A stretch of 53,624 nucleotides of DNA from an uncultured Candidatus Saccharibacteria bacterium (GTDB lineage: Bacteria; Patescibacteriota; Minisyncoccia; Phycocordibacterales; Phycocordibacteraceae), in contig CAZFHH010000002.1 of NCBI GenBank assembly GCA_964518755.1, positions 6,796 to 60,419 of the forward strand, given 5' to 3'. Positions within the stretch are counted from its first letter, which is position 1; each line of letters begins with the position of its first letter. Under the pieces are notes generated by a model that searched no databases, was not told the origin of the DNA, and saw only the letters and a list, made by a program, of their open reading frames with translations. Of this stretch, positions 190 through 53,568 are shown piece by piece. The translations under genes and the position numbers were made by a program.

Positions 190-221
190 CCCGCCCGTCT
201 GCCACGTGGCAGACGGGCGGG
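190..221. repeat. 32-bp perfect palindrome with no loop
   Basis: CCCGCCCGTCTGCCAC|GTGGCAGACGGGCGGG just downstream of thyX. Confidence 0.95.
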
Positions 222-235
222 CATCCACCAATAAA

Positions 236-1588
236 CTATTTCAGCGTAATATCGTGTGTACCCCGTGCGATATCAAAGCGCCCCGGGTCATCATCAAGAT
301 GAAGCGTTAATCCATCTTTGCCATATTGCGATAAAAGCGCGCCAGCCATTTCAGTCGCACGCTTGCGAAGTGTTGGGTGCACAAACCGCGTTGCGCGCAG
401 TTCCACTAGATATACAAGTGCAGGAATATTTCCGGTGATACGATTTGGAATATTGTATCCCATTGGAATGTAGTATTGAGCAACTTCTTTTGAGATGTTG
501 AGCGCGCCAGTTTCTTTTTCTTGTTGAAGCAGTAGTTCTTCCGCTCTTCTCTCTACATCATCAGGTAATTCTTCCATGTACCATTTTCCAAAACCGTGCG
601 CCATTGTAACAAGTGGCATACGTTGTGTAATCGCTCTGTGTCGCTGGATGTCGCGGAAGGAGCCGAAATCCAATAAAAATTCAAACTGCACCGTTCCACA
701 TTCTGCAATAAAGCGAGGCAATTCTGTTTTTGCATGTCGTGACTGCATAAGAGTGCGATTTTGCGAAAGAAGCTTATGGTCAACAGAATCTTTTGTGAGT
801 TTGAAATCAATCGCCTTCGCCTTTGAAAAATAATTTTCAGTTTTCATCCATGTAGCATTATATACTTCAGTTTCTTTGTAGTGTTTGTGTCCAAAAGAGC
901 TCGGGAATATTTCTTGTAGCGCATGATCAATGCTCTTTGCAATATTTTGCACCTCTGAGAGTGGGTGGTATCGCAAAAGCATCAGCTTATCGGCGGCTTG
1001 TCGCAAATTGGTGTGCCATGCGAGATTCGTTGATGCACCGGAAGGAAGAAACCCGCGCATGATGTCAAAAGCGCGCGCGTTGATTGCTTTTCCATACACC
1101 TTCTCATCTTCACCATCTTGTAGCGGGTATTGTTTTTTGAGTTTTTCTTGAACAGGTGTCATGTTTCTCAGATAAAAGGAGCGCCACTTTTCAAGAATGT
1201 CTTTTGATTCTTTTGATCCAACCGGGTCAATGAATGGTTGTGAAGAGAAATCAATGTAGCGAGTTGAGGATTCTTGCCCTGAGTATAACTGCCAGTCTTG
1301 AATTGCTTTTGCGGCAAGCATAGAAACTCCCTCAATGAATATGGTGCAGCTTCCGCAGTCGCCGATAGATTTGTGCCCATAGCCCACATAAAACGAAGAC
1401 ATAAACTTCTCAACGCCTTTTTCGGTGAGTGTTTCAAGGTGTGCAACAATTCCGCCAATAGAACGCGAATGAAGAGCCTGCAACATTGCTTCCGCCTCAG
1501 GCGTTATGATAGCTCCGGTATCAAGAACCAACACTTTCCCCCCTCCGGAAACGTTGTGCACGGAATGTTTTAGCTTATTGAATGACAT
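236..1588 (-). CDS. thyX: FAD-dependent thymidylate synthase, long two-domain form
   Basis: GYGHKSIGD, QESSTRY and RDIQRHR motifs; 450 aa is about two Thy1 domains; next to tmk. Confidence 0.9.
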   Translation of the reverse strand: MSFNKLKHSVHNVSGGGKVLVLDTGAIITPEAEAMLQALHSRSIGGIVAHLETLTEKGVEKFMSSFYVGYGHKSIGDCGSCTIFIEGVSMLAAKAIQDWQLYSGQESSTRYIDFSSQPFIDPVGSKESKDILEKWRSFYLRNMTPVQEKLKKQYPLQDGEDEKVYGKAINARAFDIMRGFLPSGASTNLAWHTNLRQAADKLMLLRYHPLSEVQNIAKSIDHALQEIFPSSFGHKHYKETEVYNATWMKTENYFSKAKAIDFKLTKDSVDHKLLSQNRTLMQSRHAKTELPRFIAECGTVQFEFLLDFGSFRDIQRHRAITQRMPLVTMAHGFGKWYMEELPDDVERRAEELLLQQEKETGALNISKEVAQYYIPMGYNIPNRITGNIPALVYLVELRATRFVHPTLRKRATEMAGALLSQYGKDGLTLHLDDDPGRFDIARGTHDITLK

Positions 1589-1640
1589 TATATCGTCACG
1601 ATTATTTTATCATACGTCCGTGTGCTAGAGTAATAGTCAT

Positions 1641-2276
1641 ATGGAAGAAAATAAAAAAGGGAGGTTTATAGTGTTTGAGGGTGGCGAAGGTTCAGGTAAA
1701 GATACGAATATTGACCGGCTTAAAAAAGAGTATACGAACAGGGATGATCTTGTTTTTACAAGAGAGCCAGGGGGCACTGTTCTTGGGGAACGTATCCGCG
1801 AGATTTTGTTTGTAAAGGAAGCGTCACCAATGAGTATTAAAGCAGAGCTGATTTTGTTTCTTGCGGCGCGCGCGGAGCTTATTGAAGAAGTTATCGCCCC
1901 GGCGCTTATGGCTGGGAAGACCGTTGTGAGTAATCGCTTCGGTCTTTCGACTGTTGCGTACCAAATTTATGGGCGTGAGCGACAGGAGTATTTGCCATTT
2001 TTACTTTCCATCAGTGAGTTTGTGGTTGGTGAATGGAAACCAGATGCATATATTTTATTGGATGTTTCTCCTGGGATAGGTCTTGAGCGAGTAATGAAAA
2101 GAAAGGGAGAGATTAATCGTTTTGATACTGAGAAGTTGGATTTTCATAAACGTGTACAGGGCGGATATTTAAAACATGTTGGTGATATCGGAATGCCACA
2201 TGTTATTGATGCAAGCCGTAATTTTGGAGAGGTGTACAAAGATGTAAATACTGTGTTTGGGAAATATTATCAATAA
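1641..2276 (+). CDS. tmk: thymidylate kinase
   Basis: FIVFEGGEGSGKDT P-loop, TREPGGT, LFLAARAE, STVAYQ. Confidence 0.97.
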   Translation: MEENKKGRFIVFEGGEGSGKDTNIDRLKKEYTNRDDLVFTREPGGTVLGERIREILFVKEASPMSIKAELILFLAARAELIEEVIAPALMAGKTVVSNRFGLSTVAYQIYGRERQEYLPFLLSISEFVVGEWKPDAYILLDVSPGIGLERVMKRKGEINRFDTEKLDFHKRVQGGYLKHVGDIGMPHVIDASRNFGEVYKDVNTVFGKYYQ

Positions 2277-2284
2277 ACATACAG

Positions 2285-2318
2285 CCCGCCATGTGGCACT
2301 AGTGTGTCACATGGCGGG
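2285..2318. repeat. palindrome, 15-bp arms, 4-nt loop
   Basis: CCCGCCATGTGGCAC-TAGT-GTGTCACATGGCGGG, one G.T mismatch. Confidence 0.9.
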
Positions 2319-2369
2319 GCCTGTTCGCTTTTCATTGCACACACCGTTTTTATAGTATACAGTTTACCT

Positions 2370-3485: not shown

Positions 3486-3531
3486 TTTTCCCCGCGATGG
3501 CGGAGCTGTAGCTCCGCCATCGCGGGGAAAA
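3486..3531. repeat. perfect palindrome, 22-bp arms, 2-nt loop
   Basis: TTTTCCCCGCGATGGCGGAGCT-GT-AGCTCCGCCATCGCGGGGAAAA. Confidence 0.95.
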
Positions 3532-3554
3532 GTATTTTGCGGTATTATATGAAT

Positions 3555-4817
3555 ATGGATTTGGAATTTATAAAACGTGATGACCCGGAAATATATGAGG
3601 CGCTTGTAGGCGAAGATGCTAGAGAGCGCGATGGGCTTGAACTTATTCCGTCAGAAAATTATGTGTCGCGCGCGGTGCATGAAGCGTTGGCATCAGCGCT
3701 TACCAATAAATATGCCGAAGGTTATCCGGGGAAGCGCTATTACGGCGGACAGGAGTTTACGGATGCGGTGGAAGTACTCGCCATTGATCGCGCCAAAAAA
3801 CTTTTTGGCGCGGAGTATGCGAACGTACAGCCTCTTGGAGGAGCCAACGCAAACATCGCAATGTATTTTGCACTTCTCTCGCCGGGCGATACGGTTCTCG
3901 GCATGGATTTGTCACATGGTGGGCATTTGACGCATGGGCACCCCGTGACGTATCTCACCAAGATTTTTAATTTTGTACGCTACGGCATGAAAGATATTGA
4001 AACCGGCGAGATTGATTATGAGCAAATGCTTCGTGTTGCAAAAGAGGTAAAGCCGAAAATAATTCTCGCGGGCTTTTCCGCGTACCCGCGCGAATTGGAC
4101 TATGCGAAGTTTGTGGAGATTGCGCGAGAGGTCGGTGCTTTTTCCGTGATGGACATCGCGCACATTGCCGGGCTCATTGCCGGCGGTGCGGTGAAAAATC
4201 CGTTTGACAGTGGATTTGATATTATGACAACGACGACACACAAAACACTGCGCGGACCGCGCGGAGGAATGATTTTAACACGCGGCAATGCGGAACTTGC
4301 AAAACGTATAGACAAAAGCGTATTTCCGGGGTTGCAGGGCGGTCCGCACATGCACAATATCGCCGCAAAGGCTGTTGCATTTCATGAAGCATTACAGCCA
4401 AGCTTTAAAAAATATGCGTCGCAAATTATTAAAAATGCCGCAGCGATGGCGGAAGTATTCGCAAAACATGGTGCGCGCATGATTACGGGCGGTACGAGCA
4501 ACCATCTTATTTTGCTTGATGTGCAAACGTCGTTTGAAATCTCCGGCGCCGATGCACAGGTACTCCTGGACAGCGCCGGTATTACACTTAATAAAAATGT
4601 GATTGCCAACGATCCGCGCAAACCAATGGACCCGTCGGGCGTTCGTTTCGGTACGCCGGCACTTACTACACGCGGGTTTAGTGAGGCGGATTGCGCGAGA
4701 GTGGCGCAAATAATGATTGAGGTGCTTACAAAGCGCGATGATGATGCTGTTGCGAGGGCGCGCGAGGATGTACACATCCTCGCGCGCCAACATCCCATTC
4801 CGGATTCTTTTTCATAG
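3555..4817 (+). CDS. glyA: serine hydroxymethyltransferase
   Basis: LELIPSEN, NKYAEGYPGKRYYGG, TTTTHKTLRGPRGG (PLP lysine); start may be 3549. Confidence 0.98.
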   Translation: MDLEFIKRDDPEIYEALVGEDARERDGLELIPSENYVSRAVHEALASALTNKYAEGYPGKRYYGGQEFTDAVEVLAIDRAKKLFGAEYANVQPLGGANANIAMYFALLSPGDTVLGMDLSHGGHLTHGHPVTYLTKIFNFVRYGMKDIETGEIDYEQMLRVAKEVKPKIILAGFSAYPRELDYAKFVEIAREVGAFSVMDIAHIAGLIAGGAVKNPFDSGFDIMTTTTHKTLRGPRGGMILTRGNAELAKRIDKSVFPGLQGGPHMHNIAAKAVAFHEALQPSFKKYASQIIKNAAAMAEVFAKHGARMITGGTSNHLILLDVQTSFEISGADAQVLLDSAGITLNKNVIANDPRKPMDPSGVRFGTPALTTRGFSEADCARVAQIMIEVLTKRDDDAVARAREDVHILARQHPIPDSFS

Positions 4818-6327: not shown

Positions 6328-6359
6328 ACAAGCGAGTGTGCTTACGCACACTCGCTTGT
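6328..6359. repeat. perfect palindrome, 14-bp arms, TTAC loop
   Basis: ACAAGCGAGTGTGC-TTAC-GCACACTCGCTTGT. Confidence 0.9.
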
Positions 6360-6420: not shown

Positions 6421-8136
6421 ATGAAAGAGAGGATTTATACAATGGTTTCTAATGCTCTTGCAAAGCTTGGGGCAGAGGGCATTGAGTTTGCCGTGGAGTA
6501 TCCACCGGATTTATCGCATGGTGATTATGCGATAAATGCAGCAATGGTTGCGGCAAAACGTCTTGGCAAAAGTCCTCTGGAGCTTGCGGGCAGTCTGGCA
6601 CGAATCATTAAAGATGGTATGGGTGATGATGCCACACATGTTTTCGTTGCCGGACCGGGATTTATAAACATATCTTTCTCGGCGTCTTTTTATGAACATG
6701 TTCTTGAGGAAGCTCTTCGTGCAGGCGATGCGTGGGGAAGCACTGCCATGCTCTCCGGCAAGCGTGTCATCATTGAGTACGCAAACCCGAACCCATTCAA
6801 AGAGATGCACATCGGACATCTCATGGGGGCGATTATCGGTGAATCGTTGGCGCGGCTTTTTGAAAATGCCGGTGCACACACCGCTCGAGATACATTTGGC
6901 GGTGATGTCGGCCCACATGTGGCAAAGGCACTATTCGGATTGAAATATGCACACATTTCCACCCCCGCGAGTTCAAAAGAAATCGGCGAGGCATATGTGT
7001 ATGGTTCACGTGCGTATGAAGACAGCACAGATGTGCGTGAGAAAATTGATAAACTAAATGTCACTCTATACAGTGTTCTTGAAAAGCATTTTAAGAATGA
7101 AAAACTTACCACGGATGAACAGGGGCTGTACGAAACATGGGAAGTTGGCAGAAAGGTTTCAGTGGGTGCGTTTGAGGCGTTATACAAAAAACTTGGCATA
7201 CGGTTTGATTATGTTTTCTATGACAGCGATACCGTAGCTACGGGTCTTGAGGTGGTGGAGCGCGGACTTGCAAGCGGTGTGTTTGAAAAAAGTGAAGGAG
7301 CCATTGTGTATCATGGAGAGAAAAAAGGACTGCACACTCTTGTGTTTGTTACTTCGCGCGGTACTCCAACATACGAAACGAAAGACCTTGGGCTTGCAAT
7401 TCTCAAAGAGAAAAAATTTCCATCGGATAAATCAATCATCATTACAGCAAATGAGCAGATAGGGCATTTTAATGTGGTGCTTTCCGCGCTTTCAGAAATA
7501 GAAAATGCGCTTGCAAGAAAAACTGTGCATGTGTCGCACGGGTTTATGCGTCTTACAACGGGCAAGATGTCTTCTCGCCATGGCACCGTCATCACCGCCT
7601 CAGGGCTTATAGACAACGTCATCGCCATTGCAAAAGAAAAAAATGAAGATGATGAGGTGGCAACAAAGGTGGCGATTGGAGCGATTGTGTATATGGTGTT
7701 GCGTCAGTCGCCCGGGGCGGATATTATCTTTGACCCGGAGAAATCTCTTTCACTTGAGGGGGATTCCGGTCCTTATTTGCAATATGCGCTTGTGCGTGCT
7801 CTTTCCGTGTTGCGCACCGCAAGCAAAGACGGGCGCGGTACCTTGCACGCCGATGCCTCGGCATCGGCGTGCAAGGTACCGCGCGAACCACATGACCTTT
7901 TGCGAATACTGGTACAATTTCCGGATGTGGTGGCATACGCACAAGAGCGCCTCGCCCCGAATTTCCTCGTTACATATCTTACAAAGTTGGCGAGCCAATG
8001 GAATACATTTTATGCAAATGAGCGCATTATTGGCGGAGAATATGAAGAATATACATTGCGTATGGTGCGCCTGTTCGCACAAACGATGAGCAAGGGAATG
8101 AAACTCTTGGGCGTGCCGACACTGGAAAAGATGTAG
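6421..8136 (+). CDS. argS: arginine--tRNA ligase
   Basis: HGDYAIN, EYANPNPFKEMHIGH, KMSSR, EGDSGPYLQYA. Confidence 0.97.
   Translation: MKERIYTMVSNALAKLGAEGIEFAVEYPPDLSHGDYAINAAMVAAKRLGKSPLELAGSLARIIKDGMGDDATHVFVAGPGFINISFSASFYEHVLEEALRAGDAWGSTAMLSGKRVIIEYANPNPFKEMHIGHLMGAIIGESLARLFENAGAHTARDTFGGDVGPHVAKALFGLKYAHISTPASSKEIGEAYVYGSRAYEDSTDVREKIDKLNVTLYSVLEKHFKNEKLTTDEQGLYETWEVGRKVSVGAFEALYKKLGIRFDYVFYDSDTVATGLEVVERGLASGVFEKSEGAIVYHGEKKGLHTLVFVTSRGTPTYETKDLGLAILKEKKFPSDKSIIITANEQIGHFNVVLSALSEIENALARKTVHVSHGFMRLTTGKMSSRHGTVITASGLIDNVIAIAKEKNEDDEVATKVAIGAIVYMVLRQSPGADIIFDPEKSLSLEGDSGPYLQYALVRALSVLRTASKDGRGTLHADASASACKVPREPHDLLRILVQFPDVVAYAQERLAPNFLVTYLTKLASQWNTFYANERIIGGEYEEYTLRMVRLFAQTMSKGMKLLGVPTLEKM
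7833..7884. repeat. 52-bp perfect palindrome inside argS
   Basis: GCGCGGTACCTTGCACGCCGATGCC-TC-GGCATCGGCGTGCAAGGTACCGCGC. Confidence 0.95.
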
Positions 8137-8177
8137 TACAGCCCCGCTTTCGCGCGGAGCGCAAAAGCGGGGCTGTA
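8137..8177. repeat. palindrome right after the argS stop, 19-bp arms, GGA loop
   Basis: TACAGCCCCGCTTTCGCGC-GGA-GCGCAAAAGCGGGGCTGTA, one mismatch. Confidence 0.9.
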
Positions 8178-9239: not shown

Positions 9240-12200
9240 ATGGAGGAAATACCAAAATCAGAAATGGCGTTGCGAGAGGAGGAAACACTTGTTTTCTGGG
9301 AACAGCACCATATTTTTGAAAAGTCACTTGAGAAAACTTCACCGGAAGGAGAGTTTATCTTTTACGAGGGACCGCCAACCGCTAATGGTCGTCCCGGTGT
9401 GCACCACCTTGAAGCGCGCGTATTTAAAGATGCCATTCCGCGCTACAAAACAATGCGCGGGTACCACGTACGTCGTCGTGCAGGATGGGATACACACGGG
9501 CTTCCTGTAGAGCTTGAGGTAGAAAAAGAATTAAAGTTTTCCGGGAAGAAAGATATTGAGCAATATGGTATCGCAAAGTTTAATAAAAAATGTCGTGCAA
9601 GTGTGTTGAAATACATTGATGAGTGGCAAAAGTTTACAGATCGTATAGGCTATTGGGTTGACCAAAGCAAAGCATATTTTACTTATGACGCAACCTATAT
9701 GGAATCAGTGTGGTCAATCTTAAAACATATCAATAATGATAATCGTCTCTATAAAGACTACAAGATTGTGCCGTGGTGCACACGTTGTGGCACCGCATTA
9801 TCATCTCACGAGCTGGCGCAAGGATATCAAGATGTCAAAGACTTGGCAGTTACCGTAGAGTTTAAAGTAATAGGAAAACAAAACATATCATTTCTTGCAT
9901 GGACCACCACGCCGTGGACATTGCCGGGCAACGTGGCTCTTGCTGTTGGCGCCAGCATCACTTATGTAACCGTTGAGAAGAAAGAAAAAGATTCTGATAA
10001 TCCATCGCGCTTTATTCTTGCAAAAGAACGCTTGCGGAGTGTATTTAGTGAAGAAGAGTATTCAATAATTGAGGAACACAAGGGAAGCGAGTTAGTGGGA
10101 ATGGAATATGAACCGATTTATTCGTTTATTCGTGAAATTGCGCCAATTGCCGAGAAGCCAAAATTTAAAAAAGCATTCCACGTATATGCCGCGCCATTTG
10201 TAACAACCGAGGATGGCACCGGCATAGTGCATATTGCCGTGATGTATGGACAAGACGACTTTGAGCTTGGTACTGAGGTGGGATTGCCCAAGGTACATGT
10301 TGTTGCTCCCGATGGGCTTTTTGTCCCGGGCACCGGGTTTCTTGAGGGGCGTTTTGTTAAAGGTGAAGAGCTTGCCGTGGATATTATAAAAGATCTCGCG
10401 CGCAAGGCGGTGCTTTTTGCGAAGGGGAAGTATGAACACACATACCCCTTTTGTTGGCGTTGTAAAACCCCGCTTATCTACTATGCGCGTGATTCGTGGT
10501 ATATCCGCATGCAGGATTTACGAAAAGAAATGGTCGCACAAAATAAACATGTCCATTGGGAACCGGAGCACATTCGTGATGGGCGTTTTGGGGATTGGAT
10601 TGCCGGAGCGAAAGATTGGGCTATTAGTCGCGAACGTTATTGGGGCACACCTCTTCCCGTATGGGAAAATGCAGACGGTAATGAACGAGCAATCATTGGT
10701 TCAATTGAAGAATTAAGACGTCATACTCGCAAAAGCGGAAACACTTATTTCATCATGCGTCATGGGCAAGCGCAAAGTAATGTCATTGGAAAAATCAGTA
10801 CAAAACTTTCCACAGAGAGTAAGGACTCTCTTACAGAAGTTGGGCGCGCACAAGTTTTGCAAAGTGCAAAGGAGCTAAAGGCGCAGGGTTGTGTTGACAT
10901 CATCATCGTCTCGCCGTTTCTTCGTGCGCAAGAAACGGCGAGCATTGTCGCGAAAGAGCTAAGTATTCCAAAAGACGCTGTGCATACTGATGTCCGTTTG
11001 TGCGAAATAGATGCCGGAGAGCTTGATGGCGTGTCGTACGAAGAATGGCGCGCTTTTTTCCCGTCTGTTGAAGACAGGTTTATCAAGACGCCCCCCGGCG
11101 GTGAATCCTTTAATGATGTACGTATTCGTGTTGCGCAATTACTGTATGAAATTGAAAAGCAATATAAAGGAAAACGAATCCTTTTGGTATCGCACGAAAG
11201 TCCGTTATGGATGTTGCAACTTGCCGCACTTGGCATATCGGGCGGTGATGAAAGTGTTCCAGTCAAGTATGGCAATGCACAGTGGGGTGTGATTGATTTC
11301 GTCTCACTTCCGCACAATGAAAATTATGAACTGGATTTACATCGCCCATATATTGACGATGTCGTGCTGGTTTCAGACAAAGGAACGGAGCTTCACAGGG
11401 TTAAAGAAGTTATTGATGTGTGGTTTGATTCGGGTGCCATGCCTTTTGCTTCCGAGCACTATCCGTTTGAAAATAAGAAGTGGGTTGAAGGAGTCGGGTA
11501 CCCTGCGGACTTCATCTCTGAGGCGATTGACCAAACGCGTGGGTGGTTTTACACGCTTCTTGCGGTCGGCACTCTTATGGGGCGTGGGATGGCATATAAA
11601 AACGTCATTAGTCTCGGGCACCTGCAAGACGAAAATGGACAAAAGATGTCCAAATCAAAAGGTAATATTATTAAACCGTGGGAAGCTATAGATAAGTGGG
11701 GCGTTGATACGCTTCGTTTTTGGATGTATAGCGTCAATCAGCCTGGTGAGGCAAAGAGCTTTGATGAAAAGACCGTGCGCGAAGCGGCGCGGATACTTTC
11801 TTGGTTTGAAAATAGCGCAAAGTTTTATGAACTCTTTAAAGACCACGTGTCCAACGAGGAATCGGAGCCAAAAACAATTGATCAATGGATGCGGTTGCGT
11901 ACGCAACAAACGGTGCGTGCGGTTACAGCCCATTTTGATAACTATAAATATTTCGACGGTGCGCGTGCCATTGCAACATTGCTTGAAGATTTATCTCAAT
12001 GGTATGTGCGACGAATTCGTGACAGGGCGCGCGAGGGTGACCGCGCTGTTATTGAAACACTTCGTGAGACATTGCACACTATAGCGCTTCTTATCGCTCC
12101 GCTTTCACCATTTATAGCTGAACGAGTATTTCAGAATGTTCGCAAAAATACCGATGTGGAAAGTGTACATCTTGCGCGGTGGCCGGAAGGAGTTGCATCA

Positions 12201-13302: not shown

Positions 13303-15210
13303 ATGCCACCACAAGACGACAGAAGCTCTCTTGAAAAAGCGCGCGAGGAATTATATTCTGTGCGAGGGAATACACGTGCCGGCGAATCAGCCACCGAGCC
13401 ACCGGAGCCCCGGCGTAGCGCCGGGGCTCCGGTGGCGACCGCGTGGGAAAACGATACGTTCACCACAAGACCAAAGCCACACAAACACGTGCGATTTGCC
13501 ATACTTTTCTTTTGGGTGGCGCTTACTTTTTTTCTGGTTGCCGGCGGTGTTTCCGCCTACTTGCTTTTTTCCGGTACGCGTTCGGTATCAACGGCACGCG
13601 TCATACTTACAATGCAGGGCCCAACAAGCGTTGCTGCCGGTGATACCGTTTCACTTTTGGTAACCATAACCAATCGCAATATCGTGCCTCTTAAAAACGT
13701 AAAGCTTTCACTGGTTTTCCCGAAGGGAACACGCTCGCCAAGCAATGTGCTTTCTCCTCTTGTACGTAGCAGTGAAAATGTAGGCACCATAGCTCCGGGC
13801 GAGACAATAAAGAAGCAAATAAAATCCGTACTTTTTGGCGGACAGGGGGATTCGCTTCCCCTGCGCGCCACGATACAATTTAATGCAGAGGGCTCAAATG
13901 CAACATTTACCAAAGAAGCATCCGGGGCTATTTCTATAGTTTCAACACCGCTTTCCGTTTCCATTGATGCTCCGGCATCGGTCATTCCAGGGCAGGTTAT
14001 GTCAATTGTGGCGACCGTTCGTTCAAATAGCACCAAACCAATTCGCGGTACAGTGCTCCACGCCGTTTATCCGGCAGGGTTTACCGTTAAAAAATCATCA
14101 TTGCCATCGCTTGGTGGGAATTTTTCAATCGGTACAATCGCACCCGGACAAACTCGTGTCGTACATATTAAAGGTGTTCTTTTTGGCAAGGTCGGGTCGC
14201 AACAAGCGTTTCATTTTACCGTTGGTACGGCAACCACCGCATCAAGTGGCAGTATTGCAATTGCGTACATGACGCAAGCTGCGACCGTCACATTTACTCA
14301 GCCGTTTATTGCGACAATCATGACGGTAAACGGCGGGGCAATCGGTAATACGGCTCTTATGCCAGGGACAAATGTCACCGTGTCGGTTGCATGGATGAAT
14401 ACTCTTACGGTTCCGGTTACCAACGCGCGCATTGCCGTTGAGCTTGGCGGAGACGCCCTCATTCCTTCAAGCGTGAAAAGCCAAACGGGACAATATCAAT
14501 CATCAACGCATACGGTTGTGTTTAGTAGGGATACAAATCTGGCTCTTTCACAATTTCCTCCGGGCGCTCAAGGAACCGGCACGTTTACATTTCAAACCTT
14601 GTCGGTTGCAAGTACAACCTCTGGTGGAATATACCACCCCACGATTACTCTCCGTGCGGTCGTTTCCGGAGAATATCCGGGTCAAGATATTTCGGTTGGA
14701 ACCACAACTGCCGGTATGGTGCAAAAATTAAAACTCGGCACGCTGCTTTCGCTTAATGCATACGCACTGCATGCAACAGGTCCGTTCGCAAATACGGGGC
14801 CTGTACCGCCCGTGGCAAATGCCAGAACTACATATACAATCGTGTGGCGAGTGCACGACACCCTAAACGATGTGGGCGGGGCGACTGTATCCGCAAATCT
14901 CCCAACGGCGGTTACGTTTGTTGGTCCGGTTTCTCCGCGCGACGGTTCCGTAATTTACAATGGGAGTACACATTCCGTTCGGTGGTCTATAGGAAACATG
15001 TCATCAAACACAACGCGCATCGCAATGTTTCAGGTTGCCCTCACTCCAAGCACAAGCGTGCGCGGCACGGCGCCGTCACTTCTTGACCCAACAACCTTGA
15101 CGGCATTTGATCGTTTTGCGCAAATAACCGTTTCCTCACTTGCCAATGCGATTACCACCACGCTTTCGCATGAATCGCAATACGATATAAACTCGGGTGT
15201 TGTGCGATAG
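13303..15210 (+). CDS. membrane-anchored surface protein with tandem Ig-like domains
   Basis: One N-terminal TM helix; repeated GPTSVAAGD, GTIAPGE, GTIAPGQ beta-sandwich patterns; TATACT 6 nt before ATG 13303. Confidence 0.8.
   Translation: MPPQDDRSSLEKAREELYSVRGNTRAGESATEPPEPRRSAGAPVATAWENDTFTTRPKPHKHVRFAILFFWVALTFFLVAGGVSAYLLFSGTRSVSTARVILTMQGPTSVAAGDTVSLLVTITNRNIVPLKNVKLSLVFPKGTRSPSNVLSPLVRSSENVGTIAPGETIKKQIKSVLFGGQGDSLPLRATIQFNAEGSNATFTKEASGAISIVSTPLSVSIDAPASVIPGQVMSIVATVRSNSTKPIRGTVLHAVYPAGFTVKKSSLPSLGGNFSIGTIAPGQTRVVHIKGVLFGKVGSQQAFHFTVGTATTASSGSIAIAYMTQAATVTFTQPFIATIMTVNGGAIGNTALMPGTNVTVSVAWMNTLTVPVTNARIAVELGGDALIPSSVKSQTGQYQSSTHTVVFSRDTNLALSQFPPGAQGTGTFTFQTLSVASTTSGGIYHPTITLRAVVSGEYPGQDISVGTTTAGMVQKLKLGTLLSLNAYALHATGPFANTGPVPPVANARTTYTIVWRVHDTLNDVGGATVSANLPTAVTFVGPVSPRDGSVIYNGSTHSVRWSIGNMSSNTTRIAMFQVALTPSTSVRGTAPSLLDPTTLTAFDRFAQITVSSLANAITTTLSHESQYDINSGVVR
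13398..13436. repeat. 39-bp perfect palindrome inside CDS
   Basis: GCCACCGGAGCCCCGGCG-TAG-CGCCGGGGCTCCGGTGGC. Confidence 0.93.
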
Positions 15211-35276: not shown

Positions 35277-35318
35277 AATAAATTACAGTGGATTGTAAGT
35301 AATCCACTGTAATTTATT
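35277..35318. repeat. perfect palindrome, 18-bp arms
   Basis: AATAAATTACAGTGGATT-GTAAGT-AATCCACTGTAATTTATT. Confidence 0.92.
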
Positions 35319-35994: not shown

Positions 35995-36047
35995 GGCAAG
36001 ACGGGGATGTACCTGCTGTTTAACAGCAGGTACATCCCCGTCTTGCC
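35995..36047. repeat. perfect palindrome, 26-bp arms, 1-nt loop
   Basis: GGCAAGACGGGGATGTACCTGCTGTT-T-AACAGCAGGTACATCCCCGTCTTGCC. Confidence 0.96.
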
Positions 36048-37136: not shown

Positions 37137-37173
37137 ATAACCCCCGCGTGGACTTCGTCCACGCGGGGGTTAT
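37137..37173. repeat. perfect palindrome, 17-bp arms, abutting an extended -10
   Basis: ATAACCCCCGCGTGGAC-TTC-GTCCACGCGGGGGTTAT followed by GCTATGAT. Confidence 0.92.
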
Positions 37174-38336: not shown

Positions 38337-39866
38337 ATGAATGACCAACTGGTTTCTCATATAAAACAACGACTTGCGCAAAATATGCTTCACGATGATA
38401 TCGTGAAGGAGCTTCTTGTCGCCGGATGGAAGCAGGAGGATGTGGATGCAGCGTTTGGTATTGCGCAAGGAAGTCCGCAGTTCCCGTCGGTTGCGCCGGC
38501 GGCGCAACCGACGGGGGTGGCTGAACAGTCCGCCCAAACTCCAATTGTGCCTGACACAAACCCGGCTGAAACGTACTCGGCTCCAATCACCATGTCAGCG
38601 ACATCCACAGACACCGCAAGAACAGCAGACGGTGGCGCCTTCGGCGCCACCGTCTCCCCAAACAAGCTTCCCGGTGTTTTCGCCTTATTAAAAGGCGGTT
38701 TTGCTATTTACAAAGAGCGGCTGGGCGTGTTGGTCGGCATTGGAGCAATGCGGTTTTTGCTTTCGCTTTTCTTTGGTGGTCTGATTATTGGAAGTGTCGT
38801 ATTGGGCATAATCCTTCTTGTACACCCATCAGTGATAATTACATTTGTTTTTGCAATAATCACGCTTCTGATTGTGGCGGTGATGGTGTGGCTTTTATTT
38901 TGGATCACATTGGCTGGCATGCAAGCCATTCGTGGGCACAAAGAAGAAGTCACTTTTGTCACGGCGTTTGGTAGCGCCCGTTCGCTCGTGTGGTCTTTCT
39001 TGTGGCTTTCAATTATTGTAGTACTTGTAAGCTCGGGAGGTATATTTATTTTTTCCATATTGCCGGGAGCACTGCTTGCGCTTCTGGGATTCCTCTCGCC
39101 CGTCGCGCTTATAATTCCAGGCATATACCTTGTGGTATCTCTTGCAATATTTGCATCATTATTTGGTACTTGGTTTATTTTTTCCGGGTGGGTATTTTTG
39201 ACGGAGTCACTGCGCGGTATCCATGCACTTATGGCAAGCAGGGAACTGGTGCGTGGTCGTTTCTGGAAAATATATGGGCGTGCGTGGGGAATATTTTTCG
39301 TTATCGGATTTGGCATGTGGGTATTCAAATTTGTGTTTACACTTATTTTGTTTTTTATTCCGATGGTATCAGGTATTGTGGTAATGATTGCGAGTATGTT
39401 ATTTTTCATGCCATTCGCACTCGCAACAGTATATTTCCTATATGAAAATGTGCGTTTGCAGGTGCCTGTTATTCCAGAATCTCCACCAAAAGTACACAAA
39501 GCATTCGTACCGTATGCCATAGTTGGTGTCGTAGCGGTTATTGCATTCTTAATGTTACCGCCGATTATTTCAAGCTCACTTCATCATGCACGACAGATAG
39601 GGAACGACGGCACAATCAAGAGTGATGTGTCCACAATGCAACTGCAACTGGAGATTGATGGAGGGGTCGCTCCCGGTACTTATCCGGTATCACTTACTAA
39701 AGCTGCACAAGCCGACCCGACCATTGCCATACTACTGAAACATTTGCAAGAGAGTGGTGCACACTACACCTATCAAAGCACGGGAAGCACCTATACTTTT
39801 TGCGCGACACTTAGCACCGGCTCACAATTTTGTGCTAATTCATCCGGGAAAACTTTTACAAAATAG
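38337..39866 (+). CDS. multi-pass membrane protein with C-terminal pilin-like domain
   Basis: About 7 TMs; SSLHHARQIGNDGTIKSDV..YP..YTFCATL..FC resembles a pilin head; palindromes at 38483-38515 and 38627-38655 in the linker. Confidence 0.8.
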   Translation: MNDQLVSHIKQRLAQNMLHDDIVKELLVAGWKQEDVDAAFGIAQGSPQFPSVAPAAQPTGVAEQSAQTPIVPDTNPAETYSAPITMSATSTDTARTADGGAFGATVSPNKLPGVFALLKGGFAIYKERLGVLVGIGAMRFLLSLFFGGLIIGSVVLGIILLVHPSVIITFVFAIITLLIVAVMVWLLFWITLAGMQAIRGHKEEVTFVTAFGSARSLVWSFLWLSIIVVLVSSGGIFIFSILPGALLALLGFLSPVALIIPGIYLVVSLAIFASLFGTWFIFSGWVFLTESLRGIHALMASRELVRGRFWKIYGRAWGIFFVIGFGMWVFKFVFTLILFFIPMVSGIVVMIASMLFFMPFALATVYFLYENVRLQVPVIPESPPKVHKAFVPYAIVGVVAVIAFLMLPPIISSSLHHARQIGNDGTIKSDVSTMQLQLEIDGGVAPGTYPVSLTKAAQADPTIAILLKHLQESGAHYTYQSTGSTYTFCATLSTGSQFCANSSGKTFTK

Positions 39867-40709: not shown

Positions 40710-40750
40710 CAGTCCCGCGCGAGTTTGCTCTGCAAACTCGCGCGGGACTG
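40710..40750. repeat. perfect palindrome, 19-bp arms
   Basis: CAGTCCCGCGCGAGTTTGC-TCT-GCAAACTCGCGCGGGACTG. Confidence 0.93.
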
Positions 40751-41820: not shown

Positions 41821-41903
41821 AATTTTCTACCTGGAATTTTACCACTGTGGAAGTCCGACTTCCACAGTCTCCACAATCTAACGACTTCCGCAGGATGCGG
41901 ATC

Positions 41904-42043: not shown

Positions 42044-42137
42044 ACTCACAATCACCGCGCAAGCTTGCTTGCGCGGTGATTGTGAGTTCCCGACCACAGT
42101 CCCTCCCGCGCGCTTTGCGCGCGGGAGGGACTGTGGT
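42044..42137. repeat. two tandem perfect palindromes with 21-bp arms (42044-42087, 42093-42137)
   Basis: Loops TT and TTT. Confidence 0.95.
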
Positions 42138-43384: not shown

Positions 43385-43425
43385 AAAATACCCCCGCGAC
43401 GGCTCCGCCGTCGCGGGGGTATTTT
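43385..43425. terminator. perfect palindrome, 19-bp arms, probable terminator
   Basis: AAAATACCCCCGCGACGGC-TCC-GCCGTCGCGGGGGTATTTT. Confidence 0.85.
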
Positions 43426-45002: not shown

Positions 45003-45242
45003 ATGAGAGAAAAAACAGCAGATTCAAAATTGGGATACCTACGGGATCCCAAAACGGCAGCAGATATTATTACTGCCGGAGGGATGGTGGATGGTGCCAT
45101 TTGCATCATCTGCCAAGAAAGATTTCGGTGTCCGGAAGCGTTTGGTCCGGACGCCAGTCTCTTTTGCCCAAGATATGCTTTGGACGAAGGAGACCCGGAA
45201 AGTATTGAGCACATCATAACAGATGTGCTCACACAAACATAA
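45003..45242 (+). CDS. small Cys-rich hypothetical protein
   Basis: CIIC..C..CPRY; purine-rich leader; TTGACG/TAGTAT promoter. Confidence 0.6.
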   Translation: MREKTADSKLGYLRDPKTAADIITAGGMVDGAICIICQERFRCPEAFGPDASLFCPRYALDEGDPESIEHIITDVLTQT

Positions 45243-46929: not shown

Positions 46930-46964
46930 CCTGCCCGCGCGCACGTAATGTGCGCGCGGGCAGG
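46930..46964. repeat. palindrome, 15-bp arms
   Basis: CCTGCCCGCGCGCAC-GTAAT-GTGCGCGCGGGCAGG. Confidence 0.9.
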
Positions 46965-48819: not shown

Positions 48820-51048
48820 ATGACGCGCCACATGTTAAAAAGGGTTGAAATTACAGGCTTTAAATCTTTTGCAAAAAAGACGACACTTGATTTCTCATCA
48901 AGTGTTACATCTATTGTCGGACCGAACGGCTCCGGGAAATCAAATGTTGCCGAGGCATTTCGTTTTGCGCTTGGTGAGCAATCAATGAAAAATATGCGCG
49001 GTAAGCGAAGCGAGGATCTTATCTTTAATGGTTCGCCAACGACACCGCGCACCAATCGCGCGGCGGTTGCGATTATTTTTGATAATACATCGCGCGTGTT
49101 TAATCTTGATTTTGACGAGGTTCGCGTAGAGCGCGCCGTATTTCGCGACGGGACGAGTGAATATACGATTAACGATTCAAAAGTACGCCTGCGCGATATC
49201 CATGAATTACTTTCAAATGCCAACATTGGTGAGAGTGGGCACCACATCATCGCTCAGGGCGAGGCGGATAGAATTTTGCTCGCCAATGCACGACAAAGAA
49301 GAGAGATGCTTGAAGATGCGCTCGGGCTTGCGTCATACGAATTCAAAAAAAATGAGGCACAACGCAAGCTTGAAAGAACGCGCGAAAACATTAGGCAAGT
49401 TGATGCCTTGCGCAGAGAACTTTCCCCACATGTTCACTTTCTTCAAAGGCAGGTTGAGAAGCTGGAGCGTGCGGATGCAACGCGCGATGAGTTGAGCACA
49501 TTGGGTGCAACATACTTTGCGATTGAAGATGCGTATATCGCTCTGGAGACAGAAACCGCCACTATCGCACTCGCTTCCGCAAAAGAAAAGCTCGCCGTAC
49601 TTTCGTCAGAACTCTCCGCGTTGTCTGTAGCGGTTGATAAAGATGATGAAGGCGAGAGCTGTGCGAGAGCTGTGCGTACTGCAGAAGAGACGCTTGAAAA
49701 AATAACCGCGACACACAATGCTCTTGTAAGAGAGATGGGTAGAACAGAGGGTGCACTTGGTGCGATGCAAGATAGAGAAAAATCACTTGGCGATGATCCG
49801 TGTGTACGCATTGCTCGTGATGATATTTCAATGCTGTTTGATGAAGTGCAAGAACGAGCATCGGAAGCGCTTGATGGAGACGCGTCAAAACTGCGCGTCG
49901 CTCTTGTTTCCGTTCGCACGATAGTAAAATCATTTTTTGAACGGTTTGGTTCTACAACTGAAACAGAGATGTTGCTTGACGATAATGAGCAAAAACTTCA
50001 CGCACTTGAGCAACAAAAGGCGATACGAGAACAAGAAGAAATTGCTCTTGGTGGTGAGGTTGAAAAATCGCGTAATGCGGTATTGCGAGCGCGCGAAATA
50101 TATTCCGCGCATGAAGAAGCTGGTAGGGAAGGACAACGGAGAAGCATTGCTCTTGCACAACAAGAGGCTCATGCTCAAGCGTCAGTGATGCAACAGGAAA
50201 CACGATTGGACGCGGTATCAAAGCGCAGTGAAAGATGCGAACATGACAAGGCGGGACTGCTTGCGTTGGTGGGACCTTCCGCTGTTTCGTATGAGCCGCG
50301 CACAGAGGTGTCGCAGGAAGAATATGCAGAGCAAGACAATCGCTCGCGCTCCATTGAAAGATTCAAAATTCGTTTGGAAGAATTAGGTGGCACCGGCGAA
50401 GATATTCGCAAAGAGTATAAAGATGTATCACAGCGTGAAAATTTCCTCACCACAGAACTTGAGGACCTTTCACATTCTGCCGATATTTTGCATACACTCA
50501 TTGATGAGATTGATGGTGAGGTTGCGAAAAATTTTGCCGATGGGCTGGAGCACGTGAATGAATCATTCAGCGCTTTCTTTTCTCTTATGTTTGGGGGAGG
50601 GTCCGCACGGCTTATTCTTGAAGAAGATGATGTTACGGACGACGACGATGAGAATGAGAGTAATTTTGATAGTGCAACAGGGAACAAAAAGCCAGGGGTT
50701 GAAGTGGTGGTGCACATTCCAAGAAAGCGCGTGCAGTCACTTTTGCAACTTTCAGGTGGTGAGAGGGCGTTGGCATCTATCGCACTTATTTTTGCAATGA
50801 GCCAAGTGAACCCTCCGCCATTTTTGATATTGGACGAAACGGATGCAGCGCTTGATGAGGCGAACAGCAGGAGATATGGCGACATGATAGAAAATCTTTC
50901 CAAAAAATCACAGCTCATTGTCATCACACACAACCGCGAGACCATGAGCCGTGCTGGTATTTTGTATGGAGTTACGATGCACGGTGACGGCACATCAAAA
51001 CTGCTTTCCGTTAAGTTTGATGATGCGATTACTGTTGCAAAACGATAG
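48820..51048 (+). CDS. smc: short SMC-family ATPase (742 aa)
   Basis: GFKSFA, GPNGSGKSN, LSGGE, ILDETDAALDEAN, ITHN; follows rnc. Confidence 0.9.
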   Translation: MTRHMLKRVEITGFKSFAKKTTLDFSSSVTSIVGPNGSGKSNVAEAFRFALGEQSMKNMRGKRSEDLIFNGSPTTPRTNRAAVAIIFDNTSRVFNLDFDEVRVERAVFRDGTSEYTINDSKVRLRDIHELLSNANIGESGHHIIAQGEADRILLANARQRREMLEDALGLASYEFKKNEAQRKLERTRENIRQVDALRRELSPHVHFLQRQVEKLERADATRDELSTLGATYFAIEDAYIALETETATIALASAKEKLAVLSSELSALSVAVDKDDEGESCARAVRTAEETLEKITATHNALVREMGRTEGALGAMQDREKSLGDDPCVRIARDDISMLFDEVQERASEALDGDASKLRVALVSVRTIVKSFFERFGSTTETEMLLDDNEQKLHALEQQKAIREQEEIALGGEVEKSRNAVLRAREIYSAHEEAGREGQRRSIALAQQEAHAQASVMQQETRLDAVSKRSERCEHDKAGLLALVGPSAVSYEPRTEVSQEEYAEQDNRSRSIERFKIRLEELGGTGEDIRKEYKDVSQRENFLTTELEDLSHSADILHTLIDEIDGEVAKNFADGLEHVNESFSAFFSLMFGGGSARLILEEDDVTDDDDENESNFDSATGNKKPGVEVVVHIPRKRVQSLLQLSGGERALASIALIFAMSQVNPPPFLILDETDAALDEANSRRYGDMIENLSKKSQLIVITHNRETMSRAGILYGVTMHGDGTSKLLSVKFDDAITVAKR

Positions 51049-51090
51049 CCCCAAGCAGGCGAGCCCCTGCGGGGCTCGCCTGCTTGGGGC
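51048..51090. repeat. perfect palindrome, 20-bp arms
   Basis: GCCCCAAGCAGGCGAGCCCC-TGC-GGGGCTCGCCTGCTTGGGGC. Confidence 0.94.
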
Positions 51091-52539: not shown

Positions 52540-52541
52540 GA

Positions 52542-52578
52542 TTGCCCCCCTGCGCGCCGAAGGCGCGCAGGGGGGCAA
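52542..52578. repeat. palindrome, copy 1 of a shared 31-bp core
   Basis: CCCCCCTGCGCGCC-GAA-GGCGCGCAGGGGGG, identical at 53531-53561. Confidence 0.95.
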
Positions 52579-52591
52579 ACCAACAGTAAAC

Positions 52592-53233
52592 ATGAATGCA
52601 GAATTGAAAAATAAGTTACTTAAAATCGCCCGGAAAAAAATCTCACGTGAGGATGTTTCTCATGATTTTGAGCATGCCTTGAGGGTATTATCAAATGCTG
52701 AAAAAATTGCGAGGGAAGAGGATTGTGATCTTGATATCATCGTTCCGTCCGCTTTACTTCACGATTTGATTGTGTATCCTAAAAATCATCCTGACAGACA
52801 CAAATCACAAAAAAAGAGTGCGCAAGAAGCTGGAAGAATATTAAGTGCACTCGCAGGTTTCCCGAAAGAAAAAATAGAAAAAGTAATGAGTTGCATCACG
52901 GAGTGTTCATTTAGTAAGGGAATTATGCCAAAGTTGTTAGAGTCAAAAATTTTACAAGATTCTGACGGGTTGGAAGCGACGGGTGCAATCTCCATTATGA
53001 GAACATATTCTTCAACGGGACAAATGAAAAGGCCTTTTTATAATTCAGAAGATCCGTTTTGCGAAAGTCGCAAACCAAACACGTCAAGCTTTGCCCTGGA
53101 TTTGTTCTATGATAGGCTACTCAGGGTCGCAGAAAGAATGCATACAAAAACTGCAAAGAAAATCGCGAAGAGAAGAACCGATTTTTTGGTTGGTTTCTTA
53201 AAAGAGCTTAAGTTGGAATTGGGGGAGAAATAA
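52592..53233 (+). CDS. HD-domain phosphohydrolase (YedJ-like)
   Basis: HDFEHALRV, ALLHDL, ILQDSDGLEATGA; start moved past the hairpin to ATG 52592. Confidence 0.92.
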   Translation: MNAELKNKLLKIARKKISREDVSHDFEHALRVLSNAEKIAREEDCDLDIIVPSALLHDLIVYPKNHPDRHKSQKKSAQEAGRILSALAGFPKEKIEKVMSCITECSFSKGIMPKLLESKILQDSDGLEATGAISIMRTYSSTGQMKRPFYNSEDPFCESRKPNTSSFALDLFYDRLLRVAERMHTKTAKKIAKRRTDFLVGFLKELKLELGEK

Positions 53234-53288
53234 TTTTTTCAATGAAATTTTACAGGTGGGGATATTCACATACTCACACGTTAACGCT

Positions 53289-53525
53289 ATGTATGAAATA
53301 ATATCTCAAACGGCAATATTTATTTTGGGGGCGAGTGCCATTATCCTCATTGCAAAAAAGAATAGATGGGGTTTTGTTATAGGTTTGTTATCTCAACCGT
53401 TTTGGTTTATTACATCTTATGTGCACCAGCAATGGGGTATATTTTTAGTTAGCATAGTTTTCATGGGAAGCTGGTGTCTCGGTATTTATGAGTGGTTCTT
53501 TAAGGATAAAAAAAGTAAAGAGTAA
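53289..53525 (+). CDS. small three-TM protein, PnuC/SemiSWEET-like
   Basis: RWGFVIGLLSQPFW..QWGIF..GIYEW. Confidence 0.7.
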   Translation: MYEIISQTAIFILGASAIILIAKKNRWGFVIGLLSQPFWFITSYVHQQWGIFLVSIVFMGSWCLGIYEWFFKDKKSKE

Positions 53526-53568
53526 TAACCCCCCCCTGCGCGCCGAAGGCGCGCAGGGGGGGGTTATT
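53524..53568. repeat. palindrome with 21-bp arms, copy 2 of the shared core
   Basis: AATAACCCCCCCCTGCGCGCC-GAA-GGCGCGCAGGGGGGGGTTATT. Confidence 0.95.

Follow-up and report, generated by a model that had tools for sequence, protein, structure and literature searches.

Palindromes within protein-coding genes have been described for the mitochondrial DNA of Nematomorpha; in the accessible part of that report (2019, PMC6649704) they are left unexplained, with the authors favouring repeat conversion or a template switch as well as a parasitic character. We analysed palindromes of a comparable kind on a bacterial chromosome, in a window of 53,624 nucleotides from an uncultured Candidatus Saccharibacteria bacterium (G000:C2:6796-60419, with G000 denoting the genome under study). 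They occur in large excess, are mostly perfect and unique in sequence, are frequently found within genes, and show paired arm changes and flank conversion between species. We lean towards hairpin-templated conversion (template switching or quasipalindrome correction, combined with extension) as the process which creates, lengthens and homogenises these palindromes, with a probability of roughly 55%.

As far as the accessible part of PMC6649704 permits a comparison, the similarity to nematomorph mitochondrial DNA extends to several properties. Perfect inverted repeats occur in functional protein genes with almost no excess of imperfect ones ("binary" identity), they are gained and lost in a scattered fashion between species while arm identity is kept, and codon and amino-acid choice is bent to the requirements of pairing. 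There are also differences. The arms have 10-30 bp on this bacterial chromosome but reach up to 284 bp in the mitochondria, the palindromes of G000 also occur, and at higher density, between genes, and the long coding ones are mostly insertions in variable loops rather than being placed over conserved regions.

In-frame palindromic DNA which resides in conserved protein genes without destroying them is also found in the Rickettsia palindromic elements (Ogata et al. 2000, 2002, taken here from the accessible part of PMC6649704). Those are repeated families which in the course of time lose their repeat identity, whereas the palindromes described here are unique and stay perfect. Another related system consists of the repetitive extragenic palindromic (REP) sequences and REPINs with their REP-associated tyrosine transposases (RAYTs), for which we refer to the available part of Di Nocera et al. 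(2013, PMC3733652). Short template-switch mutations are treated by Monttinen and Loytynoja (2022; PMC8794818, PMC8604942, each available in part). According to the portion of PMC4060949 at hand, inverted repeats are "generally normally represented" in prokaryotic coding regions, and the palindrome load of G000 is far above the general prokaryotic inverted-repeat excess. A literature search, which covered articles without their supplements, retrieved no such report for Patescibacteria-like or other bacterial chromosomes.

Abundance, perfection and uniqueness of the palindromes

The assembly of G000 has 672,743 bp in 29 contigs, a G+C content of 44.8%, and is 97% complete as judged from marker genes. 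Perfect hairpins were identified with our own finder and defined by a stem of at least 10 bp and a spacer of 0-8 nt. The window contains 38 of them, or 39 if neighbours are allowed to overlap by up to 4 nt; stems of at least 12, 16 and 20 bp are found in 34, 23 and 12 cases, respectively. Twenty dinucleotide-preserving shuffles of the window yielded a mean of 0.35 hairpins with a stem of at least 10 bp and none with at least 12 bp. A repeat search returned 55 inverted pairs with nearby arms. Among the 25 longest, 21 show 100% complementarity; these longest pairs have arms of 17-27 nt which are separated by 1-6 nt, with one exception (34 nt). A window-wide palindrome system had been proposed in a preliminary description made from the sequence alone, and each palindrome named there was recovered.

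The complete genome carries 410 perfect hairpins (0.61/kb), among them 225 with a stem of at least 16 bp and 56 with at least 24 bp, the maximum being 30 bp. For comparison, E. coli K-12, sampled as two 50-kb pieces, has 9 hairpins (0.09/kb) with a maximal stem of 14 bp. In G000, the distribution of stem lengths is flat over 10-26 bp, a spacer of 3 nt is the most common, and the full palindrome does not exceed 61 bp. Perfect forms prevail: at 12 or more pairs, there are 334 perfect palindromes, 60 with one mismatch and 34 with two, and at 20 or more pairs the corresponding numbers are 124, 4 and 1.

Most of the palindromes are unrelated in sequence, as had been noticed before. For 194 of the 225 palindromes with a stem of at least 16 bp (86%), the arms lack any other 14-mer match in the genome, and BLAST clustering of the 334 palindromes with a stem of at least 12 bp left 244 singletons. 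There is no target-site duplication beyond chance (flanking direct repeats of at least 3 nt in 10 of 280 cases, with about 8 expected). We found no shared flank, tag or terminal signature around the unique palindromes, and no nearby third copy which might have served as a template except in the REP-like GGACAT family described below.

Several properties relate to the DNA itself. Six window palindromes, when folded as single-stranded DNA, reach -21 to -36.5 kcal/mol (z-scores of -6.5 to -12.4), and the arms have 59% G+C compared to 45% for the genome. GNA or TNC account for 69 of 120 triloops (12.5% expected), and C-G closes 82 of the 120; a GNA or TNC triloop closed by C-G is a very stable DNA mini-hairpin motif. 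A spacer of only 0-2 nt is found in 125 of the 375 palindromes outside the families, so that the central bases are complementary even though they are unable to pair in a hairpin. Mismatches on the sense strand do not show a preference for wobble pairs (40 of G:U type versus 33 of A:C type, p=0.48). The dominance of perfect forms, the lack of a G:U preference, the short spacers and the triloop bias together favour a process which acts on DNA. The earlier proposal that hairpins are kept for their structure rather than their sequence agrees with this, given the uniqueness of the palindromes and the paired changes in relatives.

Palindromes within coding sequences

The location of many palindromes within coding sequence is a feature which the preliminary description did not see. 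Open reading frames (ORFs) were defined by a crude longest-ORF rule and cover 88.6% of the genome; 184 of 406 palindromes are located in such ORFs, but several of the small palindrome-holding ORFs are doubtful. A stricter rule leaves 122 palindromes which are located 30 nt or more from the edges of ORFs of at least 150 aa, so that 30-45% of palindromes are intragenic, depending on the rule used. Their density in coding regions is about 0.3/kb, with about 0.007/kb being expected from shuffles. Intragenic palindromes account for 11 of 19 in the relative G011 and for 11 of 14 in G017, compared to 0 of 9 in E. coli, where all are located between genes.

About 11 window palindromes lie in well-supported genes. 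Those assigned to larger ORFs are the following (no strand was assigned to any palindrome of the window):

3789..3812, 11-bp arms, in the gene for SHMT, encoding the conserved motif RAKKLFGA
4757..4788, 15-bp arms, in the C-terminal tail of SHMT
6509..6537, 11-bp arms and 7-nt loop, in the N-terminal domain of ArgRS
7833..7884, 25-bp arms and 2-nt spacer, in the variable loop of the ArgRS DALR domain (aa 471-488); DNA fold -36.5 kcal/mol, z -9.3; longer than in relatives
10910..10942, 13-bp arms and 7-nt loop, in the inserted histidine-phosphatase domain of IleRS
13398..13436, 18-bp arms and TAG triloop (no in-frame stop), near the N-terminus of a 643-aa ORF
15694..15721, 13-bp arms, in a class II aminoacyl-tRNA synthetase ORF
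37377..37421, 21-bp arms and GAA triloop, in a 276-aa ORF
38483..38515, 16-bp arms and 1-nt spacer, in a 509-aa ORF
38627..38655, 13-bp arms and TTC triloop, in the same 509-aa ORF

The reading frames stay open through the intragenic palindromes, and the alignment with orthologs continues on both sides. When 52 palindromes were examined in ortholog alignments, the gap fraction was 0.17 inside and 0.022 outside of the palindrome, while sequence identity was 0.35 inside and 0.50 outside. The long coding palindromes are lineage-specific in-frame insertions of 12-17 residues; such insertions were seen in RecJ, in TsaD-like, UvrA-like and cysteine-desulfurase-like proteins, in a glycosyltransferase, and also in ArgRS. 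The encoded peptides are rich in Ala, Cys, Arg, Pro and Gly. With regard to codon phase, pairing is not biased (44/42/36 over the 122 palindromes, chi-square p=0.65), whereas the accessible part of PMC6649704 reports such a bias for the mitochondrial repeats.

The IleRS ORF (9240-12707, 1155 aa) is unusual in itself, as a His_Phos_1 domain (aa 504-670) splits the match to the class I catalytic domain. In the overlap of a RecD-like ORF with the next ORF there is a 22-nt perfect inverted repeat (52399-52476), the 34-nt spacer of which exceeds those of the remaining set.

Paired changes and flank conversion in relatives

A metagenome scan provided the syntenic relatives L053-L057 and L060, which have 67-78% nucleotide identity to the window and are all palindrome-rich (0.53-0.79/kb). 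The first SHMT site (3789..3812) has a palindrome of 11 bp in the window but of 17-19 bp in L053, L054/L055 and L057. Its left flank is ATT GAT (Ile-Asp) in the window and reads ATA ACC, ATA TCC or ATA CTC in these relatives. Each of the altered flanks is the exact reverse complement of the right flank of the same relative (GGT TAT, GGA TAT, GAG TAT), and the conversion replaces the Asp residue. A multi-nucleotide change which corresponds to the reverse complement of the neighbouring arm is a feature of template switching, and this is what is found here. The codons at this site are arranged palindromically over the conserved motif; L060 encodes the same peptide and has no palindrome.

At the second SHMT site (4757..4788), the window and L053 (16 bp) have covarying palindromes (GAT..ATC versus GGC..GCC). 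L057 and L060 have no palindrome there and are of equal length, so that orthologous sites devoid of the palindrome exist for both positions in SHMT.

The N-terminal site in ArgRS has an 18-bp palindrome which is common to L053, L055 and L056. Three, one and four paired changes were counted and not a single unpaired one, while the ArgRS genes of L053 and L055 are only 67.5% identical. Some of the paired arm changes in relatives alter amino acids. Among 88 related ArgRS genes, 12 of 14 palindromes are located in just two places. The DALR loop behaves as a hot spot: six other species carry palindromes there, and all of these differ in sequence.

Reliability of the palindromes in the assembly

Long palindromes may also be produced by fold-back chimeras during library construction or assembly. 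Such an artefact would fit the tendency of Logan contigs (assembled contigs of public sequencing runs, which are our read evidence) and of scaffold gaps to break at palindromes. We consider an artefact highly improbable, as run contigs from three studies match the window with only 0-4 differences over kilobases, and one of these studies could not have been the source of this assembly. A single run contig of 6,034 bases covers seven palindromes and shows four differences, none of them within a palindrome. Palindromes also occur at orthologous sites in the assemblies of other species. The contigs from three studies together with the open frames exclude fold-back, which had been named before as a possible explanation.

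Palindromes are found where the scaffolds have gaps (C9:34334, C2:6696) and where Logan contigs end, and the gap on C9 directly follows a GGACAT palindrome. The window itself does not contain any N; a scaffold gap ends 1 base before its start.

Hairpin-templated conversion as the proposed mechanism

Quasipalindrome correction and template switching are reportedly covered by work of Ripley in 1982, van Noort et al. in 2003, and Ladoukakis and Eyre-Walker in 2008. We infer that a process of this type operates in G000. A short inverted repeat would allow the nascent strand to fold back and to copy its own other arm, by an intrastrand or a fork template switch, and one such event would be sufficient to generate perfectly complementary arms. 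Outward growth would occur when a flank is overwritten by the reverse complement of the opposite flank, and template switching could also add new inverted sequence. Repeated events would keep the arms matched while their sequence drifts, so that palindromes would persist and grow wherever the change is tolerated. This could be the case in intergenic DNA, in variable protein loops which accept in-frame insertions, and in conserved motifs having codons which can be arranged palindromically. The lineage may be permissive because SbcCD, ExoVII and MutS mismatch repair were not found. Conversion would thus be a genome-wide process which is filtered by selection, and it would be layered with a RAYT-linked REP-like family (GGACAT) and with some genuine terminators.

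The resemblance to quasipalindrome correction lies in substitution clusters by which one arm becomes exactly complementary to its partner, in paired changes without intermediates, and in the excess of perfect over imperfect short inverted repeats. What differs is the scale, with about 0.6 palindromes per kb, stems up to 30 bp and many cases in ORFs.

A number of observations weigh against hairpin-templated conversion. No template-switch event was caught directly. As the nearest relatives are only 67-78% identical and an ancestor is not available, polarity and origin by a single event are deduced indirectly. Pairs were counted in seven aligned ArgRS sequences (three with the palindrome, four without it): covariation was 0.180 compared to 0.150 after shuffling, a value which was equalled or exceeded in 86 of 500 shuffles, while this happened for the share of paired cells in 0 of 500. 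A near-identical strain in sequencing run X4 is unchanged at all seven palindromes spanned. Many of the long coding palindromes are whole insertions which exceed the summed length of both arms, so that simple snap-back copying of an existing flank is insufficient on its own. For SbcD, xseA and mutS, the search was negative in each of 31 genomes, so that they cannot explain the differences in density between these. Loss of PF00929 exonucleases was considered as a cause and rejected: the family is missing in G000 but also in the low-density genome G003, and is present in the high-density genomes G004, G011, G012 and G015. A contribution of selection for termination is plausible for part of the palindromes, since the density in convergent gaps (3.42/kb) is higher than in divergent gaps (1.91/kb) and Rho was not found. 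A cluster of four differences at 46867-46880 in run X4 was also dismissed as a candidate event, being mostly synonymous ordinary divergence which creates no new inverted repeat.

Symmetric indels in C/G runs at 52544/52569, seen in run X3, probably result from cross-mapping of the related palindrome at 53524.

A more active process is conceivable. An enzyme, either one of the multi-copy RAYT-like HUH nucleases or a peculiarity of the replisome, might nick extruded hairpins irrespective of their sequence, with the arms being copied by a resynthesis which resembles rolling-hairpin replication. We regard such a structure-directed palindrome engine as rather doubtful.

Repair genes and palindrome density among relatives

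Searches of G000 did not reveal SbcD, a true SbcC, xseA, mutS or any PF00929 exonuclease, nor Rho above the cut-off, while RecJ and RNase III are present. In the set consisting of G000 and 30 relatives, SbcD was found in 0 of 31 genomes, xseA in 0 of 31 above the cut-off and mutS in 0 of 31, while PF00929 (DnaQ/ExoI-type, DEDDh) was found in 18 of 31. The toolkit for DNA repair and termination looks strongly reduced. In E. coli, SbcCD and ExoVII destroy hairpins or suppress template switches, and a causal role of the missing enzymes is what we infer for this lineage. It had been pointed out in the preliminary description that long perfect palindromes tend to be unstable in bacteria. This concerns palindromes of more than about 100 bp in SbcCD-proficient cells and does not apply here, with overall lengths of 61 bp at most and SbcD not found.

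The only SbcC-like matches in G000 are to a short SMC homologue (48820-51048). It has only 742 aa, and its heads match SMC_prok_B with 532 bits, just below the cut-off; from its length and the matches to the head domains, most of the SMC coiled coil seems to be missing.

Across relatives, of which 12-60 kb were sampled per genome, palindrome density lies between 0.0 and 0.72/kb. G000 (0.61/kb) is near the top and G003 from the same genus has 0.05/kb, while the median of 41 metagenome loci of at least 8 kb is 0.18/kb. Thermophily was considered as a driver of hairpin elongation and discarded, as the IVYWREL fraction of 0.390 leads to an estimate of about 30 C.

Intergenic palindromes and their relation to terminators

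Palindromes are enriched between genes (about 2-3.4/kb, compared to 0.31/kb in ORFs), with the highest density in convergent gaps and an intermediate one in tandem gaps (2.93/kb). They do not occur in most intergenic gaps, as had been claimed, since only 29-36% of the gaps hold at least one. The window palindromes that remain to be described, apart from the GGACAT family, are:

190..221, perfect, 16-bp arms, no spacer, no T-tract; DNA fold -20.9 kcal/mol, z -6.5; just downstream of the stop of a thyX-like ORF (236) and also on the 5' border of the following minus-strand ORF
3486..3531, perfect, 22-bp arms and 2-nt spacer; in the gap before the SHMT gene, with a T-run at the 5' end and an A-run at the 3' end
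6328..6359, perfect, 14-bp arms and 4-nt loop; intergenic, before ArgRS
8137..8177, near-perfect, 19-nt arms (95%); begins directly after the ArgRS stop
19187..19213, perfect, 12-bp arms and GTA triloop; overlaps the stop of ORF 17760-19202
21524..21552, imperfect hairpin read directly, 13 pairs with one T.G, containing TCGGAC; first in a run of three
21635..21687, perfect, 25-bp arms and TTC triloop; intergenic, without T-tract
24988..25009, perfect, 11-bp arms, no spacer
25162..25187, perfect, 12-bp arms; 20 nt within the 3' end of minus-strand ORF 25142-26188
26389..26422, perfect, 15-bp arms and 4-nt loop; in a 111-aa minus-strand ORF
29786..29823, perfect, 17-bp arms and GTAA loop; intergenic, with A/T ends
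34178..34223, perfect, 21-bp arms and 4-nt loop; after a 1131-aa ORF, first of two abutting hairpins
34222..34256, perfect, 16-bp arms and GAA triloop; abuts the preceding hairpin
35277..35318, perfect and AT-rich, 18-bp arms and 6-nt spacer; in a divergent gap
35995..36047, 26-bp arms and 1-nt spacer, the longest of the window; intergenic, unique, without T-tract; DNA fold -33.8 kcal/mol, z -12.2
37137..37173, perfect, 17-bp arms and TTC triloop; intergenic, its T-rich tail being opposite in strand to the genes
40710..40750, perfect, 19-bp arms and TCT triloop; intergenic, without T-tract
41844..41868, perfect, 12-bp arms and 1-nt spacer; intergenic
42044..42087, perfect, 21-bp arms and 2-nt spacer; the first member of a tandem pair upstream of the L10 gene
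42093..42137, perfect, 21-bp arms and TTT triloop, having a T-rich tail on the + strand; upstream of the L10 gene
43385..43425, perfect, 19-bp arms and TCC triloop, with A-run and T-run ends; directly after the L7/L12 gene
44885..44922, perfect, 17-bp arms and 4-nt loop; in a convergent gap
45206..45231, perfect, 10-bp arms and 6-nt loop
46230..46266, perfect, 17-bp arms and GCA triloop, with A-run and T-run ends; intergenic
46930..46964, perfect, 15-bp arms and 5-nt loop; intergenic, without T-tract
51048..51090, perfect, 20-bp arms and TGC triloop; its first base is the last one of the SMC-like ORF, and only the minus strand has a T-rich tail
52542..52578, perfect, 17-bp arms and GAA triloop; its core CCCCCCTGCGCGCC-GAA-GGCGCGCAGGGGGG is shared with 53524-53568
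53524..53568, perfect, 21-bp arms and GAA triloop; related to 52542-52578

The hairpins might be structural signals which are under selection, namely long intrinsic terminators, stabilisers of mRNA 3' ends, sites for RNase III or cruciform signals in the DNA; in that case, purifying selection on structure would account for the perfection and the paired changes. The enrichment between genes is in line with this, and hairpin-based termination would be needed if Rho is indeed missing. RNase III is encoded in the window (48081-48767). Like intrinsic terminators, part of the palindromes are GC-rich stem-loops which are enriched after genes, and a few (43385, 46230, 3486) have A-run and T-run ends, with 43385..43425 being the most terminator-like palindrome of the window. 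A hairpin after the ArgRS stop is present in the window and also in L053, where it has 20 bp and an unrelated sequence. A subset of the intergenic hairpins with A/T-run ends probably does terminate transcription.

As an explanation for the complete set, selected signals are nevertheless unlikely. The stems are two to three times longer than those of intrinsic terminators and are perfect, and most of them are not followed by an oriented T-tract. A T-tract (at least 5 T in 7) on the strand of the gene was found for 17 of 73 palindromes in +/+ gaps and for 3 of 38 in -/- gaps, with a background of 10%, and in the window only 4 of 39 hairpins have one on the + side. A consensus terminator scan found several T-rich tails solely on the strand opposite to the genes. 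It had correctly been noted that many palindromes lack a T-tract, and the doubt that they are ordinary terminators proved justified. A location solely 3' of a stop codon applies to a subset, while 33 palindromes are found in divergent gaps and many others in ORFs, including those of essential genes. In addition, G:U-type pairs are not in excess, one third of the palindromes have spacers of 0-2 nt, and stem lengths do not peak at a functional size. A conflict between structure and coding should yield imperfect forms, but these are nearly absent. Finally, density varies about 30-fold among close relatives.

The genes of the window are ordinary housekeeping genes. They code for a thyX-like protein, SHMT, ArgRS, IleRS, a class II aminoacyl-tRNA synthetase, FtsK, ribosomal proteins L10 and L7/L12, NusB, RNase III, the short SMC and a RecD-like helicase. 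No match was obtained when the window was scanned for Rfam families and tRNAs. ORF 40878-41375 has a SocA/Panacea antitoxin-like domain and is adjacent to a 166-aa ORF without an assigned family; the two may form a toxin-antitoxin pair.

The GGACAT family and RAYT-like genes

There is one true repeat family, GGACAT, which consists of ATATCGGACATC, a C or a G, and GATGTCCGATAT. Its 33-35 palindromic copies represent less than 10% of the palindromes. The copies carry unique palindromic extensions beyond the common core and are often clustered with extra half-sites. Members or variants in the window are:

21569..21607, near-perfect, 19-nt arms (95%), with the GGACAT-like core TCGGACATT / AATGTCTGA
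23331..23380, perfect, 22-bp arms and 6-nt spacer, the core being GGACAT/ATGTCC and the outer arms unique; the small ORF in which it lies is doubtful
23409..23459, perfect, 25-bp arms and 1-nt spacer; its AGACATT/AATGTCT core is a variant of the family
34355..34383, REP-like palindrome AAATATCGGACATC C GATGTCCGATATTT followed by a third half-site; identical copies occur elsewhere in the genome

A second family has seven members with CTAC...GTAG ends, and a further small family has four. CGGACAT heptamers are located in crude ORFs in 113 of 176 cases, with about 70 expected by chance, but many of these ORFs are doubtful.

Two intact Y1 HUH ORFs of RAYT type (C8:3040-3684 and C1:8738-9409, about 215-225 aa) were identified in G000, together with a degraded copy (C2:3434-3676) which is located 3 kb upstream of the window. 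The best NCBIfam match of the RAYT-like ORFs is NF047646 (REP-associated tyrosine transposase), with 70 and 36 bits, which is below the cut-off of 80; the ORF on C8 (35.6 bits to NF047646) matches Y1_Tnp above the Pfam cut-off. It is surrounded by GGACAT palindromes (3007-3027, 3735-3771, 3867-3893), the nearest being 13 nt past its stop and 51 nt ahead of its start. The number of RAYT-like copies in a relative is 0-10 (10 in G001, 7 in G006), an unusually high figure for RAYTs.

The GGACAT family, with about 35 copies of one core, clusters containing half-sites and a location next to a Y1 HUH gene, resembles REP or REPIN sequences with their RAYT. It differs by the unique palindromic extensions outside the core and by RAYT-like proteins with scores which do not reach the family cut-off. 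The bulk of the palindromes lacks the many-copy character altogether, being unique and often intragenic. HUH/RAYT-driven spread, which had been among the initial suggestions, is thus supported in part, by the RAYT-like genes and by the family which flanks one of them, but this family is only a small fraction of the palindromes.

More generally, the palindromes might be mobile or propagated by an enzyme, be it a RAYT-like HUH nuclease or another structure-specific enzyme which recognises shape. Such an enzyme would spread hairpins or homogenise their arms and would insert them into genes, similar to Rickettsia palindromic elements or MITEs (transposable elements of the miniature inverted-repeat type). 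The long coding palindromes indeed act as whole in-frame insertions into conserved genes, the repeat families described above exist, and the genomes which are positive for Y1_Tnp have a higher mean density (0.28/kb, n=21) than those which are not (0.10/kb, n=9; Mann-Whitney p=0.005, Spearman 0.47). The latter statistics ignore kinship, however, and within the genus the correlation lacks significance (rho 0.31, p=0.19); G013 has three copies at a density of 0.02/kb while G018 has none at 0.27/kb. Known RAYTs and TnpA of IS200/IS605 are sequence-specific. Of the long palindromes, 86% do not share a 14-mer with any other site of the genome. The bulk also shows neither the repeated families nor the target-site duplications, conserved flanks or terminal signatures of mobile elements, and the flank conversion at the first SHMT site is a cluster of substitutions without any insertion. 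For these reasons, mobility is quite unlikely to account for the set as a whole.

The 19-nt repeat AATGGCTCCTGACCCCATT occurs in nine copies in the genome, six of them exact, and is found in the window at 34292-34310, 34405-34423 and 35181-35199. One inverted pair brackets the GGACAT palindrome at 34355..34383, and two copies in direct orientation enclose a cassette of about 750 bp, in which there are two small ORFs (34497-34757 and about 34757-35150). The bracketed segment could be a mobile cassette or its attachment sites.

Biological implications

The origin of long perfect stems and the upkeep of arm complementarity is an old question in molecular evolution. A small genome with relatives which span an approximately 30-fold range of densities offers a natural comparison by which the factor behind the rate of hairpin-templated mutation might be found. 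As the palindromes overwrite amino acids in conserved proteins such as SHMT, ArgRS, RecJ and UvrA, they provide a measure of mutational push against selection at the protein level. There are also practical consequences: hairpin-based terminator prediction will be unreliable in these genomes, and de Bruijn and short-read assemblies fragment at the palindromes. If the doubtful possibility of a palindrome engine turned out to be true, the palindromes would be self-perpetuating, sequence-free parasites which arise de novo, expand outwards, enter essential genes and remodel protein sequence. They would then be a bacterial counterpart of the phenomenon in nematomorph mitochondria, with an identifiable genetic cause which differs between sister species.

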